From Candidatus Thorarchaeota archaeon (GTDB lineage Archaea; Asgardarchaeota; Thorarchaeia; Thorarchaeales; Thorarchaeaceae), in the NCBI GenBank assembly GCA_038893995.1, contig JAWAQK010000003.1, positions 1 through 24,699 on the forward strand: a stretch of DNA of 24,699 bases, written 5' to 3'. The translations under genes were made by a program, and so were the position numbers. Positions 5,832-24,699 of this stretch are shown piece after piece. The number at the start of each line of letters is the position of its first letter. Positions within the stretch are counted from its first letter, which is position 1. The notes below the pieces were generated by a model. It saw only the letters and a program-made list of their open reading frames with translations. It was not told where the DNA came from and did not search any database.

Positions 5832-8159
5832 ATGAACAAACCCAGACTCGTTCTAGTAATAGTCGTCTTGTCAGTCATGCTTGCCAGCATGTCAACAGTT
5901 CCTGTTGCGGCAGCATACGTCAGTACGACAGCGGAGTCCTTCCAGCGCCAGTATGAACCGGGGACCAACAATCACACCTACGCGTATGTTGAACCCAGTC
6001 GAATCCCGTACAACTCGAGGACATGGCTACATGCTACCGGCGTCGGGACGAACATGAGGTCATACCGCTACAGTAACGCCGGCTGGGATCTCGTCACGTC
6101 GGCGTACTCCGGCGATGAGGACCAACTGTTCCTGTGGGCACAGCATTCGTCGTACCCTGGGAACTCATTCTCCAATACCACAATGTTGCCAACGTTCTAC
6201 GACGTGATTGGCAGCGCCAACGAGCCAACAGGTATCAATACCACCGTGATCAGATACTCATTCCAACTCACCATGAATACCGTCAACACAGTAGTGTTGA
6301 ATCCTGACGTTGCAACGTATGGTGCTCTCGCCATCGGGACGGAGGAGTTCGTACATCTAGTTGTTTCGTCAAGACTGGATGCAGTCACATGGGCAGTGGT
6401 GGTATACGACTCCCGGGGCAGAGAGATGGCAAACGTCGAATCCGCGGAAGGAGACACCATTGTCATTCCGTTCAGGCCCTCAGGTCCGGGCACATATACT
6501 GTCCTCATAGAGACCGACACTTCAGCCCAGGGACTGGTACTCTTTGACATCAACCCAGTTGCCGTCAACCCTATACTCCTAGGAGACGGACAGCTGGTGC
6601 AGGGAGTCCTCGCAGGGAGTGAGCTTGTCGTCGAGAGCGATGGAAGTGTAGTGCACAAGGAGAAGATACCTTCAACGGTGACATACAGGTGCCAGTCGGA
6701 CGTCGTGTCGAGCATAAGCTACTCGTTCAACTACCCCGAGCTCAGTGTGCCTCTCGTTCCCACGTACCCGGTGTCGATCGCTGTCGAGAGTGACGCATTC
6801 ACTCAGTACTATGACATCGGGAGACGCTACAGGTGGTCCGCATCAACACCTCAGACTGGCGTGTATCACTACCGCTCCTTCAGGGGAGAGTCGTACTATG
6901 TCACTGTGACAGGAGCGGACAATGTTGAGTATGCTATTCTCAACAAGGCAGTGCCGACAGGCGACCTGCCGGTCAACACGGAGTTTCAGGTCCGGAATTT
7001 TGATGGCTATTCAAGAAGGATGACGTACGAACTGAATCTGAATGAGGACCACATCATGAATGTCAATGGCACCGTGCCGTCGGGAACGATCACGTGGAGG
7101 GTGTGGACTGTCTATGACAACAAGATGCATATCCTCCGCACTCTGTCATTCTCCGCAACAATGCCTAGCGCTCCACTCTACTACTTTCCAGCTGGCAAAT
7201 ACGTTGTTGAGGTCGAGATGTCATCTGGTGCCATGGGCAAATTTGAGTTCAACATCGGGCCAATCGTCAGTGATTCGTCTGCTGTCATTCCCCGCATAGG
7301 AGGCTTTCTAGTCAGCTCTCACGCCATGAGATACTATAACATGACCTTCAGACTGCTCAATCTCGACAACATCACTGTGAACACTCGTGTGGAGGTCTGG
7401 GACCGGTATTCCATTCAGCAGTCTAGTGTTGTCGTGAACCTCGCGAACAAGTGGAACGGTACGCACTGGTTCCCACATGAAACATATCTCAACTACACTG
7501 AGATAGTGACAAACAACAGGCTCACAGAGGGGTATTTCATAGTCGCAGTCTGCACTAACAGTGCGACTGACAACACTGGCTCAGGGGTACCGCGACCAGA
7601 CTACCCAGTCAGATACAATCTGACTGTCTACGATCATGAGACTTTCTACTACAATGACATTGCGGAGCTAACCGGCGGGGCGTCTGCGCCACTGGAGTAT
7701 AACTTCACGACAAGCTTGACTCAGGCCACCGAGAGATACTCTCTCAGACTGAATGTGCCCAAGGGCGTATGGTTCAATGTCACCGTGATCGCTTCTAGCG
7801 CAAGTGCCTTCAGTGCAGAGTTGCTCCATCGATGGCAGCAGAGGACTCATAGGGTCCCCTGGAACAGGCTGAACGACAACCTCGTTGGCAACATCGGCAC
7901 CCAGCTCTCGTTCCAATTCGGCTCGATCAGCAGCTCACTGACCCTGGCTGTGCAGTTGACAAGGACTGCAGGTGTGGCGGGCTATCTCTACATCCGGATA
8001 GTCCCTCTGAAGACAGACCAGTTTGAAGTGCCTCCACCACTGACCCCGCCGCAACCTGGTCCGCTTGACATCCTCGGTCCATACCTCATCCCAATTGGAG
8101 TGGGTGCTGCTGCAATCGTGATAGTGACTGTTGTGTACTTCAAGAAGTTCAAGAAATAG
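5832..8159 (+). CDS. Secreted, C-terminally membrane-anchored beta-rich cell-surface protein (putative glycoprotein)
   Basis: Signal peptide MNKPRLVLVIVVLSVMLASMSTVPVAA; beta-strand-rich body with many N-x-S/T sequons (NHT, NTT, NGT, NMT, NIT, NYT, NLT, NFT, NVT); Pro-rich linker, TM helix and basic tail KKFKK. Confidence 0.8.
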   Translation: MNKPRLVLVIVVLSVMLASMSTVPVAAAYVSTTAESFQRQYEPGTNNHTYAYVEPSRIPYNSRTWLHATGVGTNMRSYRYSNAGWDLVTSAYSGDEDQLFLWAQHSSYPGNSFSNTTMLPTFYDVIGSANEPTGINTTVIRYSFQLTMNTVNTVVLNPDVATYGALAIGTEEFVHLVVSSRLDAVTWAVVVYDSRGREMANVESAEGDTIVIPFRPSGPGTYTVLIETDTSAQGLVLFDINPVAVNPILLGDGQLVQGVLAGSELVVESDGSVVHKEKIPSTVTYRCQSDVVSSISYSFNYPELSVPLVPTYPVSIAVESDAFTQYYDIGRRYRWSASTPQTGVYHYRSFRGESYYVTVTGADNVEYAILNKAVPTGDLPVNTEFQVRNFDGYSRRMTYELNLNEDHIMNVNGTVPSGTITWRVWTVYDNKMHILRTLSFSATMPSAPLYYFPAGKYVVEVEMSSGAMGKFEFNIGPIVSDSSAVIPRIGGFLVSSHAMRYYNMTFRLLNLDNITVNTRVEVWDRYSIQQSSVVVNLANKWNGTHWFPHETYLNYTEIVTNNRLTEGYFIVAVCTNSATDNTGSGVPRPDYPVRYNLTVYDHETFYYNDIAELTGGASAPLEYNFTTSLTQATERYSLRLNVPKGVWFNVTVIASSASAFSAELLHRWQQRTHRVPWNRLNDNLVGNIGTQLSFQFGSISSSLTLAVQLTRTAGVAGYLYIRIVPLKTDQFEVPPPLTPPQPGPLDILGPYLIPIGVGAAAIVIVTVVYFKKFKK

Positions 8160-8167
8160 CGGGGGTC

Positions 8168-8206
8168 GGCCTGGGCACACCAGGCCTCTCCCGTCTCTTT
8201 CTATTC
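8168..8206 (+). terminator. Hairpin plus pyrimidine tract between convergent genes
   Basis: GGCCTGG-gcaca-CCAGGCC (8168-8186) followed by TCTCCCGTCTCTTTCTATTC, immediately after stop 8159. Confidence 0.5.
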
Positions 8207-8251
8207 TGACTCGTGGGGTGTCCAATTGGCGGTGGATAGACCGTCCGTGAC

Positions 8252-10042
8252 TCACTTGTCTTCAAGTGTCTTCTTGAACATCTTCGCGAACTCAGCGAAC
8301 TGGTCAATCCCTTTCTGCCAAGATGACTCCTTCGTCACGTCAAAGCCCACCACGGCAGCAAGCTCACGGGGGCTCTTGCTAGAACCAGCTGCAAGCAGCG
8401 ACTTCAGGACAGGGACGAATGCCTTGCCCTGCTCCTTGTATAGCCGGTACATTGCATAGACGAACAGCTGAGCGTATACGTAGGGGTAGTTATAGTACCT
8501 GTAGTTCGGCAGGTAGAAGTGGAGCTTCATGGTCCACCACCACTTCATCTCAGGCAGCCACTCGACCGAATCGCCGTACATCTTGTCTCTTGCCTTCAAC
8601 CACAGCTGGGAGACAGTCTCGCCGTCGAGGTGTTCTCCGTTTGAGATGGCCTCGTACAACATTGTCTCAAACCAGACTCTGGTCGAGACTTGGAATGCAG
8701 CCTCCCCGAACTCGTCGAGTACCTTTGCAAGTATGCCCCTACGTTCTGCCGCCGAGCTAGCCTTGGACAAGAGTTTCTCGGTGAGGAGCAGCTCGCCGAA
8801 GATCGAGCCAGTCTCCGCTATGCAACTGCCGATACGATAGTTCACTGGCGTCTGCGCCCTCGAACCAAGGTAGGCATGAAGCGCGTGTCCCAACTCGTGG
8901 GCCTGAGTGAACACATCACCCATCGTCCCATTGAAGCTCTGTAGGATGTAGGCACTCTTTCCAGCAAACCATGTTGAACAGAAGGCACCCGACCTCTTTC
9001 CATTCCTGACCTCGGCGTCAATATGTCGCCTGTCGTACATCTCTCTGATGTAGTTGCCGGCCTCCTCATCGAAGGAGCTATACGCATCGAGGATGATCTC
9101 ACGAGCCTCATCCCACGTGTAGGTCTTGTCTGGTAGGTCGGGAAGCGGAGCGGTTATGTCCCAGTTGCCAAGCCGCTTGAGTCCCATTGCCTTGGCCTTG
9201 AGCTCGAGGTACGAACGGTACACCTTCACGTTCTTCTCTATGGTCTTCATCAGGGCGTGAATGGCCTCCTCATCGACATCGTTGTCGATCAGGCTCTGAG
9301 TCATGGGACTAGGCCACTGACGTAACTTGCAGACCTGAAGATGGTCGGAACAGACCGCACGGAGTGCAGATGACCAGATTATATGGTCCTTGCCCAGTCC
9401 TGAGTAGACGGTCTCGTGAGCACGACGCCGAAGGTCACGATTGGGACTCTCGTACAGGCCTACCATCTTTCCGTATGGAAGGACCTGCTTCTTTCCGTCT
9501 ATCTCAATCTCAAAGGTGCGCGTGGCCAGCCAGTCTCCGTGGAGTTGGTTCCACGCCTCTATGCCATTCATGTCCTTGACTATTATGAGCCGCTCGAGCT
9601 CTTCACTCAGCATATGGGGTACTCTTCGCAGTATCCTCTCCAGGAAGTGTCTGTAGTCCTTGAGGACAGGATCCTGGACGAGATCTGGCCTAGACTTCAA
9701 GAGTCGACCCAGCTCCAGCTCTACAAACGCGAGGTTCTGGCCGACCTCTGCACCACAGTTTCTCGAAGTCTCATGCAGTTGCTTGGCGGTCTCGTTTGTC
9801 ATGTCAGCAGAGTACATTAGCGAGGCATACATGAAGTAGCCCTCATGCTCAAGCTCGAGACGCTCGAGCTCACGAATCAGGTCGAGGACCTCCCGGGCAT
9901 TGTATGACTCGATCTTTCCCTGGTGCTTTGACCTGAACTCCCCAGAGGCGCTAACGGACTCTTTGATCTTCCCAGCAATCCGGTCCGGATCATCGACCTC
10001 TACCAGCTGGGACAGGTCCCAGCGCATCTCCTGCGATATCAT
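8252..10042 (-). CDS. pepF: M3B family oligoendopeptidase F
   Basis: N-terminal WDLS motif, HIDAEVRNGKRSGAFC, HELGH (HExxH) zinc motif, downstream AETGSIFGE and HFY...YYNYPY. Length 596 aa fits the family. Confidence 0.93.
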   Translation of the reverse strand: MISQEMRWDLSQLVEVDDPDRIAGKIKESVSASGEFRSKHQGKIESYNAREVLDLIRELERLELEHEGYFMYASLMYSADMTNETAKQLHETSRNCGAEVGQNLAFVELELGRLLKSRPDLVQDPVLKDYRHFLERILRRVPHMLSEELERLIIVKDMNGIEAWNQLHGDWLATRTFEIEIDGKKQVLPYGKMVGLYESPNRDLRRRAHETVYSGLGKDHIIWSSALRAVCSDHLQVCKLRQWPSPMTQSLIDNDVDEEAIHALMKTIEKNVKVYRSYLELKAKAMGLKRLGNWDITAPLPDLPDKTYTWDEAREIILDAYSSFDEEAGNYIREMYDRRHIDAEVRNGKRSGAFCSTWFAGKSAYILQSFNGTMGDVFTQAHELGHALHAYLGSRAQTPVNYRIGSCIAETGSIFGELLLTEKLLSKASSAAERRGILAKVLDEFGEAAFQVSTRVWFETMLYEAISNGEHLDGETVSQLWLKARDKMYGDSVEWLPEMKWWWTMKLHFYLPNYRYYNYPYVYAQLFVYAMYRLYKEQGKAFVPVLKSLLAAGSSKSPRELAAVVGFDVTKESSWQKGIDQFAEFAKMFKKTLEDK

Positions 10043-10062
10043 GTGAAAGGCGCACTCACAAG

Positions 10063-10075
10063 CATCTTAAAGATG
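10063..10075 (-). promoter_or_regulatory. TATA-like element of pepF inside an inverted repeat
   Basis: CATCTT-A-AAGATG. On the minus strand TTTAAG lies about 25 nt upstream of the pepF ATG (10042). Confidence 0.4.
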
Positions 10076-10171
10076 AAACGGACGTGGCAACGGCGATCTT
10101 GCCATCAGCGCGACGCCGCATGCGCAAGACAACATGTTTTTCTCAACAGATCACCAACACGCCGCCGACAA

Positions 10172-11230
10172 ATGGCACTGGACGATGTCGAGGGATATTA
10201 CTACAATCAGACCATGAGAGAGTACTTCGACACAGTCAGGCTGTATGCTCTGCAGCTGGAGATCAATACTGACTGCGGGCAGTCATGTAGATTCTGTTAT
10301 GTCCGGCGAACGGTGGGACCTGGGAGACGGCTTCCGAGAGAATTCGTCATGTCTGTTCTGGACCAGGCCGCCAATCTTGAAGTCAAGACCATTGAGTGGC
10401 TTGGGGGAGACCCGTTGAGACATCCTGATTTCTGGGACATGCTCTCCTTTTCCCGGTCGCTGGGTCTCACCAACAACATCTGGAGCACTGGCGACCTGCT
10501 CACTGATCCCAGGCTGATAGAATTCCTACTGGATGATGATGCACATGGGATAGTCTCGTTCCATCTTGACACGCTCGATCCGTCGGTGTACAGGCAGCTT
10601 TCGTCGACCTCTCCCGAGTTCGTCAGTCGCGTACTCTCCAATGTGCAAGAACTGATCAGACAGGGAGTCCAACCTGAACGTCTCTACAACTGCATGACAT
10701 TCACCAGGCTCCAGGCAGGCAACGATTTCAGGAACACCGTGAGGACTCTCTCAGAGAACTACGGGGTGATCACCGGTATAGTTCCCTACAAGCATGTGGT
10801 CGATGACCCGTCCCTCGTGCACCTGGTTCCCACTGCAGAGGAGATACGTGATGCCCTGTCGTTCAGAAACACCCTCATATACGGAGGACGACTTCCCATC
10901 ACGCCTCAGTGTGTGAGCAAGTTCTACTGCGGTACCACGTGCTCTCTTACAGTGAACAGGGAACTCACTCCGTGCACCAGGATACGATATGCGGTCAATA
11001 GGGTCTCTGGAGATGACTTTCTCACACCCTTCAGAGAGTCGCGGTCCCTGCTCCTGAAGGAATCCATGCGGAGGTCAGAACATCTCTCAGATCAGTGTCG
11101 GAACTGCAGATACAGTCCGGTGTGTTGGGGATGCCGAGGCAATGCTTGGTACTACGGAGGTGATTTCTTGGGAAGCGATCCCAAGTGCTGGTATTTGTCC
11201 ACGCAACACTCTCCGTCACTGGACACCTAA
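10172..11230 (+). CDS. Radical SAM protein with C-terminal SPASM domain
   Basis: CGQSCRFC (CxxxCxxC) and GGDP motif; SPASM cysteines C...LTPC...CRNCRYSPVCWGCR...DPKC. The likely start is ATG 10172 (352 aa); the ORF-track extension from 10043 abuts the pepF start and looks non-coding. Confidence 0.9.
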   Translation: MALDDVEGYYYNQTMREYFDTVRLYALQLEINTDCGQSCRFCYVRRTVGPGRRLPREFVMSVLDQAANLEVKTIEWLGGDPLRHPDFWDMLSFSRSLGLTNNIWSTGDLLTDPRLIEFLLDDDAHGIVSFHLDTLDPSVYRQLSSTSPEFVSRVLSNVQELIRQGVQPERLYNCMTFTRLQAGNDFRNTVRTLSENYGVITGIVPYKHVVDDPSLVHLVPTAEEIRDALSFRNTLIYGGRLPITPQCVSKFYCGTTCSLTVNRELTPCTRIRYAVNRVSGDDFLTPFRESRSLLLKESMRRSEHLSDQCRNCRYSPVCWGCRGNAWYYGGDFLGSDPKCWYLSTQHSPSLDT

Positions 11231-22528: not shown

Positions 22529-22957
22529 TCACTCCTTCGAGCTGGGGGAGCCGAGACCGAGGAGACTCCTGACGAGCATTACGACCCTCTCGCTCATGGA
22601 CGTGGCACGTTCGGCCTCTGCGGGGTCATTGTAGTATCTGGACGGTATTCCGCCTGGCAGGCCATTTGGATATCGAGTGGGTATGTAGTAGTCGTCCAGT
22701 CGTCCGACTGAGGCAAGTTCGGTAAAGGCATTGTCAACCTCCGATGCTGTCTGCAAGAGGGATGTGACAGAGTGTGTGAGCAGCGGACCAAGACCGCGGC
22801 TATACAGGAATGCCTTCAGTGCCTTCTCTGCACTCTGCTGGCTGAGGTACAGGGCAAGGTAGTATCGCCCCTGTTGAGCAAGAAGACGCGCATCGCGAAG
22901 CTCGTCCTCGGCCTGTGTCAACCATCGGATTGCCTCGTTTCTTGGATCAGACCTCAT
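22529..22957 (-). CDS. HEPN domain protein (toxin of an MNT-HEPN pair)
   Basis: WLTQAEDELRDA, ALYLSQQSAEKALKA, THS and YIPTRYP, typical of archaeal HEPN proteins. Overlaps the MNT stop by 11 nt. Confidence 0.92.
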   Translation of the reverse strand: MRSDPRNEAIRWLTQAEDELRDARLLAQQGRYYLALYLSQQSAEKALKAFLYSRGLGPLLTHSVTSLLQTASEVDNAFTELASVGRLDDYYIPTRYPNGLPGGIPSRYYNDPAEAERATSMSERVVMLVRSLLGLGSPSSKE

Positions 22958-23291
22958 ACAGAACTTGTCCCCTCTCCATTATGGTCCTGAGCAGGGTGCT
23001 TGATGGGAGATCGTCCGCCAGTTCCTTGCTAGTGAATACCAGCAGGTCACATGCCACTGTTCGGCGTACGTGGGAGCCTATTATCTCGCGCCACTCCCTG
23101 CTCGACCGGTCAGGAGGCATTACGACAAGCAGGTCTATGTCACTCCACTCATGGACCTGGCCAGAGACCAGCGAACCGAACAGGATGATGCGTTGAGCCC
23201 CCACCCTGGCGAGCTCCTGCACCAGATCATCTAGGGCGGCCCGTAGTCGGACCTCGTGCCTCCTGCGCCGTTCCAGGATGTCCTGAATCAT
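22947..23291 (-). CDS. Minimal nucleotidyltransferase (MNT antitoxin)
   Basis: ILFGS...SDIDLLVV (GSx10DxD) motif, 114 aa, G..LY C-terminus, overlapping the HEPN gene. Confidence 0.93.
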   Translation of the reverse strand: MIQDILERRRRHEVRLRAALDDLVQELARVGAQRIILFGSLVSGQVHEWSDIDLLVVMPPDRSSREWREIIGSHVRRTVACDLLVFTSKELADDLPSSTLLRTIMERGQVLYEV

Positions 23292-23461: not shown

Positions 23462-24216
23462 CTAGGGACGCGCCCTTGGCCATAACGGACCACTGGCGAT
23501 CAAGACATCGCCTCTGTTCACGACGATGAGCCGGTCCCGGGGGAGAGGTCTCCAGGGCTCGTCACTGAGGTTCTCGATCGTCGTTACGAGGTATGCCTGT
23601 CCGTACTGCTTCGATCTCCAGAGGTAGTACATCTGCTGGTGTTCGCCGTCATTGAATACGTATAGGTTGTCACCGTCAGTCAGGAGGATGTTCATCTTGC
23701 CGCCATACTCCTCCTTCAGTCTCTTCAGGCCCCGCTTGATGCCCGGATAGATACCCCTGAGGTCGGCTCTGTCAACATACTCCTCAAGCCGGTCCATGAT
23801 GAAGGAGAATGCCCTGGCAGAGTCAATATCGGACGGGGGATTGACCCGAGACGGGTAGTCGTTCTCTTCGATATTGCGGATAGTACCGTTGTGCGCAAAC
23901 AACCAGTCGCGTCCGTGAAAGCGTATCATGAACGGATGTGAATTGCATGAGTCTTTCCTACTCGAACAACTGGTAGCATACCTCACGTGCGCAACGATTG
24001 TCCTGCTCCTTGCAGCATGCACCACCTCATAGAACATCTGGTCCAAAGAGTTCCCAGTGACTGCGGCATCGGCAGACTTCTCCACGATCCCGCGTGTGTC
24101 GCAGAAGTAGCCAATACCCCAGCCATCTCTGCACCAGGCCCCCCTTTGAGCGAACACTGGCAACGACATCGTTGCCCTGTCGGGCTCGTTGCAGCTCATT
24201 CGAATAGCTCACACAT
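23462..24216 (-). pseudogene. Class II glutamine amidotransferase-like (YafJ/EgtC-type) gene with a frameshift at codon 6 (pseudogene, sequencing error or recoding)
   Basis: The body has DGWGIGYF, AHVRYAT, NSHPF, LFAHNGTI and IDS motifs. The minus strand from 24216 reads ATG TGT GAG CTA TTC GA ATG AGC TGC AAC: MCELF followed by a 2-nt codon remnant before MSCNEP. Confidence 0.8.
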
Positions 24217-24546
24217 CACTCAATCCCTTTGAATTGTGATTGTGCGCCTGCTATTACATCTATTCCCATCAGCGAGAGACCGGTGAGAACGACAACAGGA
24301 CTGCTCATGCTCTACCTTAAACGAAACTGGGGGGTGTGTGGCCCCCGGACCGGCCCATGCACCCAGGCGACCTTCTAGTCTCTTTCAAGACGCTAGTTGA
24401 TCAGGTCTTCAGAGAAGGCACTTCCCTCCCAGACGCCTCTGCCTGACTTTAGTTTCTCCTTGTGCGACGTTCCTGATGGTTCCCATGATACATCGATACG
24501 CGGCCATCATCACTGGAGAACTCATGCTGACTAGACATCCCGACCT

Positions 24547-24561
24547 CGAAACACATAATTA
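24547..24561 (+). promoter_or_regulatory. Putative BRE/TATA-like element upstream of the cmr1-like gene
   Basis: CGAAACACATAATTA about 32 nt upstream of GTG 24593; GGTG SD-like element at 24584-24587. Confidence 0.35.
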
Positions 24562-24592
24562 GGACGGTGCTAACTCGTCCAGCGGTGTTGGA

Positions 24593-24699
24593 GTGGAGTC
24601 TGTTGATGTTACCATAGAAACTATTACTCCTATACATACCGGCGGCATGGGTCCAGAGGATAATGCGATCCGGGAGACAGGGATAATGGGAGGTCTGCG
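24593..24699 (+). CDS. cmr1: RAMP superfamily protein, Cmr1-like (type III-B CRISPR-Cas), 3'-truncated by the window edge
   Basis: Translation from GTG 24593: MESVDVTIETITPIHTGGMGPEDNAIRETGIMGGLR. This matches the RAMP N-terminal pattern (T-x-T-P-h-x-x-G-G ... G-x-L-R) with the ETGI.G.LR variant I recognise from Cmr1. An in-frame TAG at 24560 bounds the start. Only 35 full codons are visible. Confidence 0.75.
   Translation, partial: MESVDVTIETITPIHTGGMGPEDNAIRETGIMGGL

Follow-up and report, generated by a model that had tools for sequence, protein, structure and literature searches.

Subtype III-C is the least studied subtype of the type III CRISPR-Cas systems, and in the literature we found neither a solved structure nor a biochemical study of it. 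We take its prototype to be the MTH326-like locus, MTH328-MTH323 of Methanothermobacter thermautotrophicus. The family, with its Csx11-type Cas10, has been described (PMC3150331, PMC11229360); its loci contain no cyclase sites and no known effectors, half of them have a recognisable HD motif (PMC11229360), and cmr1 is the first gene of the module (PMC10120712).

The locus examined here, from a Candidatus Thorarchaeota genome, shares with known III-C loci the six-gene order, a Csx11-family Cas10 without cyclase residues, a match to the III-C-specific Cmr5 model, the first place of cmr1 and the absence of linked effectors that respond to cyclic oligoadenylate (cOA). In contrast to them, it is only 23-38% identical to any relative found; its Cas10c reads HL for HD, the Asp being absent from about one third of the examined relatives as well; its Cmr1 has a 19-residue Q/G-rich insert and its Cmr6 an N-terminal extension; and no array adjoins it. 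Our explanation as a whole, in which an artefactual gap splits the start of a cmr1 gene that heads a III-C operon with a presumed RNA-cleavage-only output, is one that we hold with high confidence.

The start of cmr1 at the window edge

The window, that is, the whole stretch of DNA analysed, comprises the first 24,699 bases of the 80,784-base contig C3, part of an assembly of 2.33 Mb in 82 contigs that is 91% complete. The runs holding this DNA are hot-spring metagenomes. EF-2 of the genome is 80-85% identical to Candidatus Thorarchaeota proteins, which bears out the Asgard origin proposed in a first-pass annotation of the window. A second EF-2-like gene (G000:C1:59445-61511) contains one in-frame TGA between two matching segments.

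That annotation had described, at the right edge of the window, an open reading frame absent from the ORF track and had read it as the Cmr1-like start of a type III-B operon. We found the frame as a GTG-initiated one that stays open to the last base and reads (M)ESVDVTIETITPIHTGGMGPEDNAIRETGIMGGL followed by two bases of the next codon. It was missing from the ORF track because it is listed solely when open-ended ORFs are allowed. An in-frame TAG (24560-24562) leaves the GTG as the sole start ahead of the RAMP motif, and the N-termini of the three closest homologs (MEQIDIDI..TPIHTG) line up with it. The encoded peptide comprises the N-terminal RAMP strand, a T-P-x-x-T-G-G loop and the start of a G-x-L-R-W-W helix.

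The 5' signals reported for this frame fared less evenly. A partial Shine-Dalgarno-like GGTG is indeed present, but it is weaker than had been implied, since full GGAGG(TG) sites precede the operon-internal genes cmr6, cas10c, cmr4 and cmr3. The AT-rich ATAATTA lies about 35 nt ahead of the start codon, overlaps the in-frame TAG bounding the frame on its 5' side and, by its position, is a plausible TATA-like element. From such sequence features we infer a promoter, a transcription start site and transcription of the genes as an operon. When the intergenic region was searched for a CRISPR repeat-like element or a spacer target, neither was found.

Table 1. Features of the locus and its flanks; coordinates on C3 beyond the end of the window share the window numbering
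Feature	Position	Strand	Remarks
HEPN gene	22529-22957	minus	overlaps MNT gene
Minimal nucleotidyltransferase (MNT) gene	22947-23291	minus	overlaps HEPN gene
GATase-like gene	23462-24199	minus	class-II glutamine amidotransferase (GATase_4, 1.6e-32); divergent from cmr1
Intergenic region	24200-24592		393 nt; common to cmr1 and the divergent GATase-like gene
AT-rich ATAATTA	24555-24561	+	CGAAAC before it; candidate archaeal TATA/BRE, from sequence
Partial Shine-Dalgarno-like GGTG	24584-24587	+	5 nt ahead of GTG; putative function
cmr1, 5' end	24593-24699	+	GTG start; codons 1-35 and two bases of codon 36
TGCG, last four window bases	24696-24699		second copy at 24710-24713, directly after 10 Ns
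10-N run	24700-24709		scaffold gap
cmr1, past the gap	24714-25680	+	322 further codons
cmr6	25677-26843	+	388 aa; PADLOC 3.1e-75
cas10c/csx11	26833-29718	+	961 aa; PADLOC III-C model 2.1e-137; TIGR02682 349.6 bits (cut-off 248.95)
cmr4	29718-30611	+	297 aa; TIGR02580 122.7 bits, over cut-off
cmr5	30590-31024	+	144 aa; III-C-specific model 1.4e-23
cmr3	31021-31860	+	279 aa; PADLOC 4.4e-47
P-type ATPase gene	downstream of cmr3	minus	other flank of the cassette

The window stops exactly at the run of Ns, which is a scaffold gap and not the end of the contig. When the TGCG overlap on its two sides was collapsed, the frame was kept and ran on without an early stop, giving a single protein of 357 aa, so that the expected continuation of the ORF beyond the edge was found. 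The ten Ns and one of the TGCG copies are an assembly artefact. The junction, MGGL-R-WWYGLI, is identical in the three closest full-length homologs (P0002-P0004; 332-336 aa, 37-38% identity, called Cmr1 by JGI), with no residue missing or added. A Logan contig from run X2 (record 4) bridges the gap (L002:137-691): 14 letters are omitted at 297, namely the ten Ns and the duplicated TGCG, and there are no other differences. X2 is a hot-spring metagenome of another sample, but that sample and the likely source sample belong to one study.

The same site could be read as a misjoin of two different molecules, one carrying the fragment ahead of the gap and the other the genes beyond it, in which case the edge ORF would not be the start of cmr1. 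Ten Ns are a scaffolder's placeholder, and contigs of the probable source run, X1, end exactly at both sides of the gap. Yet the independent X2 contig bridges the site, the junction restores the family-invariant R-W-W-Y in frame, and on the TIGR01894 profile the two pieces abut, the 35-aa fragment covering positions 1-31 and the post-gap part positions 33-165. A misjoin is, in our judgement, scarcely credible.

Thus, cmr1 appears truncated because a spurious gap, made up of 10 Ns and a duplicated overlap of 4 nt, splits it. As a consequence of this gap the public gene call for Cmr1 on C3 holds only the last 208 of the 357 residues, with no Pfam domain match, and the gene model can be corrected by a join across the gap.

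With its 35 codons, the edge ORF forms the beginning of a Cmr1-type (Cas7-group) RAMP gene; on this point the first-pass annotation was right. Taken alone, the 35-aa fragment matched the N-termini of four PADLOC Cmr1 profiles (best E 1.2e-5, profile positions 5-37), while the post-gap part matched Pfam RAMPs (2.1e-10) and several PADLOC Cmr1 models (best 3.5e-8). Against TIGR01894, where Cmr1 was scored as two pieces and not joined, the fragment reached 16.4 bits and the post-gap part 23.9 bits, each below the curated cut-off of 28.65 bits, with a rough sum of about 40; full-length homologs at 37-38% identity scored 53.3 and 49.1 bits, over the cut-off. A metagenome scan gave 258 stretches encoding Cmr1 relatives, of which 80 loci were kept. 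In 69 of these the alignment begins no later than residue six, and here T10, T12, P13, T16, G17, G30, G33, R36, W37 and W38 are invariant or nearly so, and the window fragment holds every one of them that falls within its 35 aa.

An AlphaFold2 model of Cmr1 residues 36-357, built on a 47-sequence alignment, reached a pLDDT of 83.9 and a pTM of 0.84. In VIA-align, only four chains matched both of its domains: 9l7c_A from an A. fulgidus III-B effector (Z 10.8, rmsd 4.4, 238 aligned), 8s9u_D, a III-D Cas7 (Z 10.0), 4l6u_B, the AF1868 Cmr1 of A. fulgidus (Z 9.8), and 4w8x, the P. furiosus Cmr1 (Z 8.8). Single-domain Csm3 chains matched model residues 166-322 only, that is, the second domain (Z at most 7.9). 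Solved Cmr1 structures align to the model from chain residue 37-38 on, as expected when the first 35 residues are left out. The fold alone cannot separate Cmr1 from other two-domain Cas7 proteins because the III-D chain scores alike, and a PDB sequence search with Cmr1 matched no chain.

With III-B Cmr1 (AF1868, 4L6U, and 9L7C chain A; P. furiosus, 4W8X) the Thorarchaeota protein shares the two-domain RAMP fold over 218-238 residues (Z 8.8-10.8), the N-terminal strand with its glycine loop, the G-rich loop GAKPQLGYGRF and the first place in the operon. It is, however, only 13-15% identical to the solved III-B proteins and sits in a III-C-specific clade whose signature is an invariant R-W-W-Y together with C-x-x-C-x-x-F-G. 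The Q/G-rich insert (residues 99-117; C3:24899-24955) is absent from the closest homologs; it lies inside a low-confidence stretch (model residues 65-88, pLDDT below 50) and is disordered in the model.

A III-C operon and its relatives

The genes cmr6, cas10c (csx11), cmr4, cmr5 and cmr3 follow cmr1 directly, so the predicted cmr operon does begin here. The six genes are co-directional with overlapping stops and starts, extend over 7.3 kb and form a translationally coupled operon, and all six reading frames are intact. Cmr5 is the Cas11 subunit of the module and Cmr3 its Cas5 subunit. The N-terminal extension of Cmr6 amounts to about 125 aa.

The locus is an ordinary subtype III-C effector operon. 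Its assignment to III-C, and not to III-B as first proposed, follows from the Csx11-family Cas10, the lack of GGDD and the order cmr1-cmr6-cas10-cmr4-cmr5-cmr3. A type III-B (Cmr) locus with a cOA-producing, Cmr2-type Cas10 might be suspected from subunit families that are common to the two subtypes: PADLOC tags its Cmr1, Cmr3, Cmr4 and Cmr6 models 'III-B, III-C', and TIGR01894 and TIGR02580 carry III-B names. Nevertheless, the large subunit is Csx11/Cas10c by both models that identify it (Table 1), it is without GGDD, and no Cas10 of the Cmr2 type (TIGR02577) or the Csm1 type (TIGR02578) was matched anywhere in the 91%-complete assembly. Furthermore, cmr6 in second place and cmr3 in last place are the III-C order, whereas the III-B order is cmr1-cas10-cmr3-cmr4-cmr5-cmr6. 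A III-B locus is therefore very improbable.

The same operon order as in this III-C locus was found in six genomes of the phylum and in about 30 relatives overall. An Acidobacteriota MAG has it on a contig that begins within cmr6, and a Ktedonobacteraceae MAG shows the part from cas10c to cmr3, up to the contig end. Among the 80 metagenome loci, all those with at least about 8.8 kb downstream of cmr1 show the order, the cmr4 query being unmatched in two, and wherever the flank of a relative is long enough, cmr1 comes first. Of 400 genomes of the phylum, 10, this genome counted, have Csx11, as do three of 85 other genomes of the family; so sporadic a spread is what one expects of a mobile defence cassette. 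Within the family, identity to the flanking P-type ATPase does not exceed 45%, and the genus consists of one genome, which leaves no empty site to compare.

Some relatives have a variant architecture, in which about 2.3 kb of additional sequence separates cmr1 from cmr6 (L021 (G323:C6) 7151-9535; also L090, L100 and L104); the extra stretch of L100 includes a second, partial cmr1-like match.

A complete and apparently intact III-C module is thereby added to the CRISPR inventory of the Thorarchaeota genome, where two I-B loci, one Cas10d-like gene and part of a further type III module were also found.

Active sites and predicted output of the complex

The GGD[DE] motif is absent from Thorarchaeota Cas10c, where the aligned palm position reads TFMIFVPA, and it was found in none of the 32 Cas10c relatives searched. 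The HD position reads WLHLLGK, that is, HL where HD is expected; in the 32 relatives this position is D in 20, N in eight, M in two, L in one and unclear in one. A later Asp of the HD domain is replaced by His, and the zinc finger is kept. This state of the motifs fits the survey in PMC11229360 (see also PMC3150331 and PMC8730458). A PDB sequence search with Cas10c matched no solved structure. In another genome of the same family, the Cas10c frame is split into ORFs of 544 and 482 aa (L022 (G313:C7) 8071-10991), which could reflect a frameshift, decay or an assembly error.

For Cmr4 we take the Asp in the VVDQP segment of the P. furiosus protein to be the catalytic D26. Thorarchaeota Cmr4 keeps an Asp (IGGIDNT) that aligns with the Asp of this segment (PDB 4RDP).

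In the mechanism that we propose, the six proteins would form a complex on a crRNA that Cas6 has processed and that arrays at other places in the genome provide in trans. The 8-nt 5' tag of the crRNA (expected AUUGAAAG) would be held by Cmr3 and Cas10c, and at the 3' end Cmr1 and Cmr6 would form a cap and assist in the capture of target RNA. Cmr4, as the backbone, would use its conserved Asp to cleave bound target RNA every 6 nt. By analogy with the III-B Cmr complexes of Pyrococcus furiosus and Saccharolobus, crRNA-guided binding of target RNA and its cleavage by Cmr4 are to be expected. The III-B Cas10 (Cmr2), in contrast, makes cOA and often has an active HD, whereas the Thorarchaeota Cas10c has neither motif and the locus has no nearby partner of the Csx1/Csm6 type. 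Because Cas10c is without both the cyclase motif and the HD Asp, the predicted output is cleavage of target RNA only, with no cyclic-oligoadenylate signal and no HD DNase.

In the literature we found no demonstrated activity of any III-C complex, or of a complex without both Cas10 activities. A Cas10 of this kind sharpens the question of how III-C protects the cell, a question that is not specific to this locus, as the HD loss recurs in about one in three of the examined relatives. The by-products of the analysis are the corrected cmr1 gene model and one more III-C Cas10 without both activities.

Flanking genes and the supply of crRNA

On the upstream side, no counterpart of the divergent GATase-like gene was found beside the loci of about 88 relatives, and the gene has no PADLOC match. 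We therefore rejected the idea that its place beside III-C operons is conserved; it is probably not related to the operon. Farther upstream lie genes for an MFS transporter, an asparaginase and large surface proteins. Downstream of the operon are the P-type ATPase and genes without a PADLOC match. Within about 13 kb upstream, where part of the window ORFs were scanned, the only defence-related match was to the MNT-HEPN pair, and to its MNT half only (PDC-S09). The right end of the window had been proposed as the boundary of a defence island. The MNT-HEPN pair upstream speaks for this in part, but the description is overstated for a compact 7.3-kb cassette flanked by GATase-like, MFS and P-type ATPase genes.

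The MNT-HEPN pair itself (22529-23291, minus strand) is 1.3 kb away from cmr1, on its upstream side. Between cmr6 and cas10c, three metagenome loci (L090:4865-5552, L100:6174-6791 and L104:14676-15318) contain pairs with 38% identity to it. At the pair, L090 and L100 are 86% identical in nucleotide sequence and L104 has no nucleotide similarity to them; the three loci represent two lineages. A cluster of nucleotidyl-transferases, C3a174, has been described as accessory to III-B/C (Shah et al., PMC6546367). The idea that HEPN substitutes for the lost HD nuclease was rejected, since the three loci with an operon-internal pair all keep the Cas10c HD (WLHDYRK).

A III-C complex whose Cas10 is without both the cyclase site and the HD Asp might, instead of being a simple RNA cutter or dead, signal by an undescribed route independent of cOA. 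The linked pair, a nucleotidyltransferase and an RNase, would then be a candidate partner; such a pair lies close to cmr1 here and is operon-internal in two other lineages (L090/L100 and L104). We consider such signalling distinctly unlikely, and RNA cleavage remains our preferred output.

The first-pass annotation had also led one to look for cas6, CARF effectors and an array beside the operon; none of these, and no cas1, was found to adjoin it. No CRISPR array was found on the whole 80.8-kb contig C3. A search of C3 for stand-alone repeat-like elements gave one weak match far from the locus, which was rejected as lying within the expectation from shuffles (1-6 matches). On other contigs the genome has 10 array fragments, located at contig ends and belonging to three repeat families, and two type I-B loci (C72 and C48) with Cas6, Cas8b, Cas7b, Cas3 and Cas1 beside arrays. 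C41 carries a Cas10d-like ORF and the only match, a sub-threshold one, to the CARF family PF09651.

In one relative, G116, an array with 58 or more repeats lies some 400 nt away from cmr1. Read in the direction of the crRNA, this repeat ends in GGGGATTGAAAG, the same 12 nt that end the 37-nt repeat family of the Thorarchaeota genome. Because of this shared end beside a cmr1 gene, the 37-nt family would be the most likely source of crRNA, although the basis is thin, being one relative's array and the similarity of the tag. Comparison of the spacers with the genome's own operon and with the region upstream of cmr1 gave only chance-level matches of 13-17 nt, and self-regulation by spacer match, an idea taken from PMC10120712, was rejected on these grounds.

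The same observations bear on whether the cassette is an orphaned or repurposed remnant that no longer protects the cell or serves a purpose other than defence, for instance the RNA-guided silencing of host transcripts. An array is missing from its contig, as are repeat-like elements beyond chance, and neither cas6 nor cas1 adjoins it; HL replaces HD, GGDD is absent, and the spread is sporadic, with three of 85 other family genomes. Against decay stand the six intact frames with their overlapping junctions and strong ribosome-binding sites, the retained Asp of Cmr4 and the retained zinc finger of Cas10c. About a third of the relatives' Cas10c proteins have likewise lost the HD Asp in operons that are otherwise intact. 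In addition, the genome's array fragments, at least 10, and its Cas6 genes could supply crRNA, and no spacer matches the operon or its upstream region. We thus regard a remnant as unlikely and prefer a functional III-C complex guided in trans.

Two RAMP genes resembling Csm3/Cas7-IIId (G000:C44:19249-20523; L027:9779-11524, minus strand) run off the end of C44. They are a cut-off second type III module, its Cas10 lying outside the assembly. This module bears on any claim of cOA signalling for the genome because the III-C Cas10c is predicted to make none.

Finally, a spacer in an array with 31-nt repeats (G000:C38, about 23601) matches the genome's own C2:66891-66915 at 24 of 25 bases (E 1.2e-5). 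The match covers 25 of the 37 nt of the spacer and could mean that the spacer partly targets its own genome or that it matches an integrated element.
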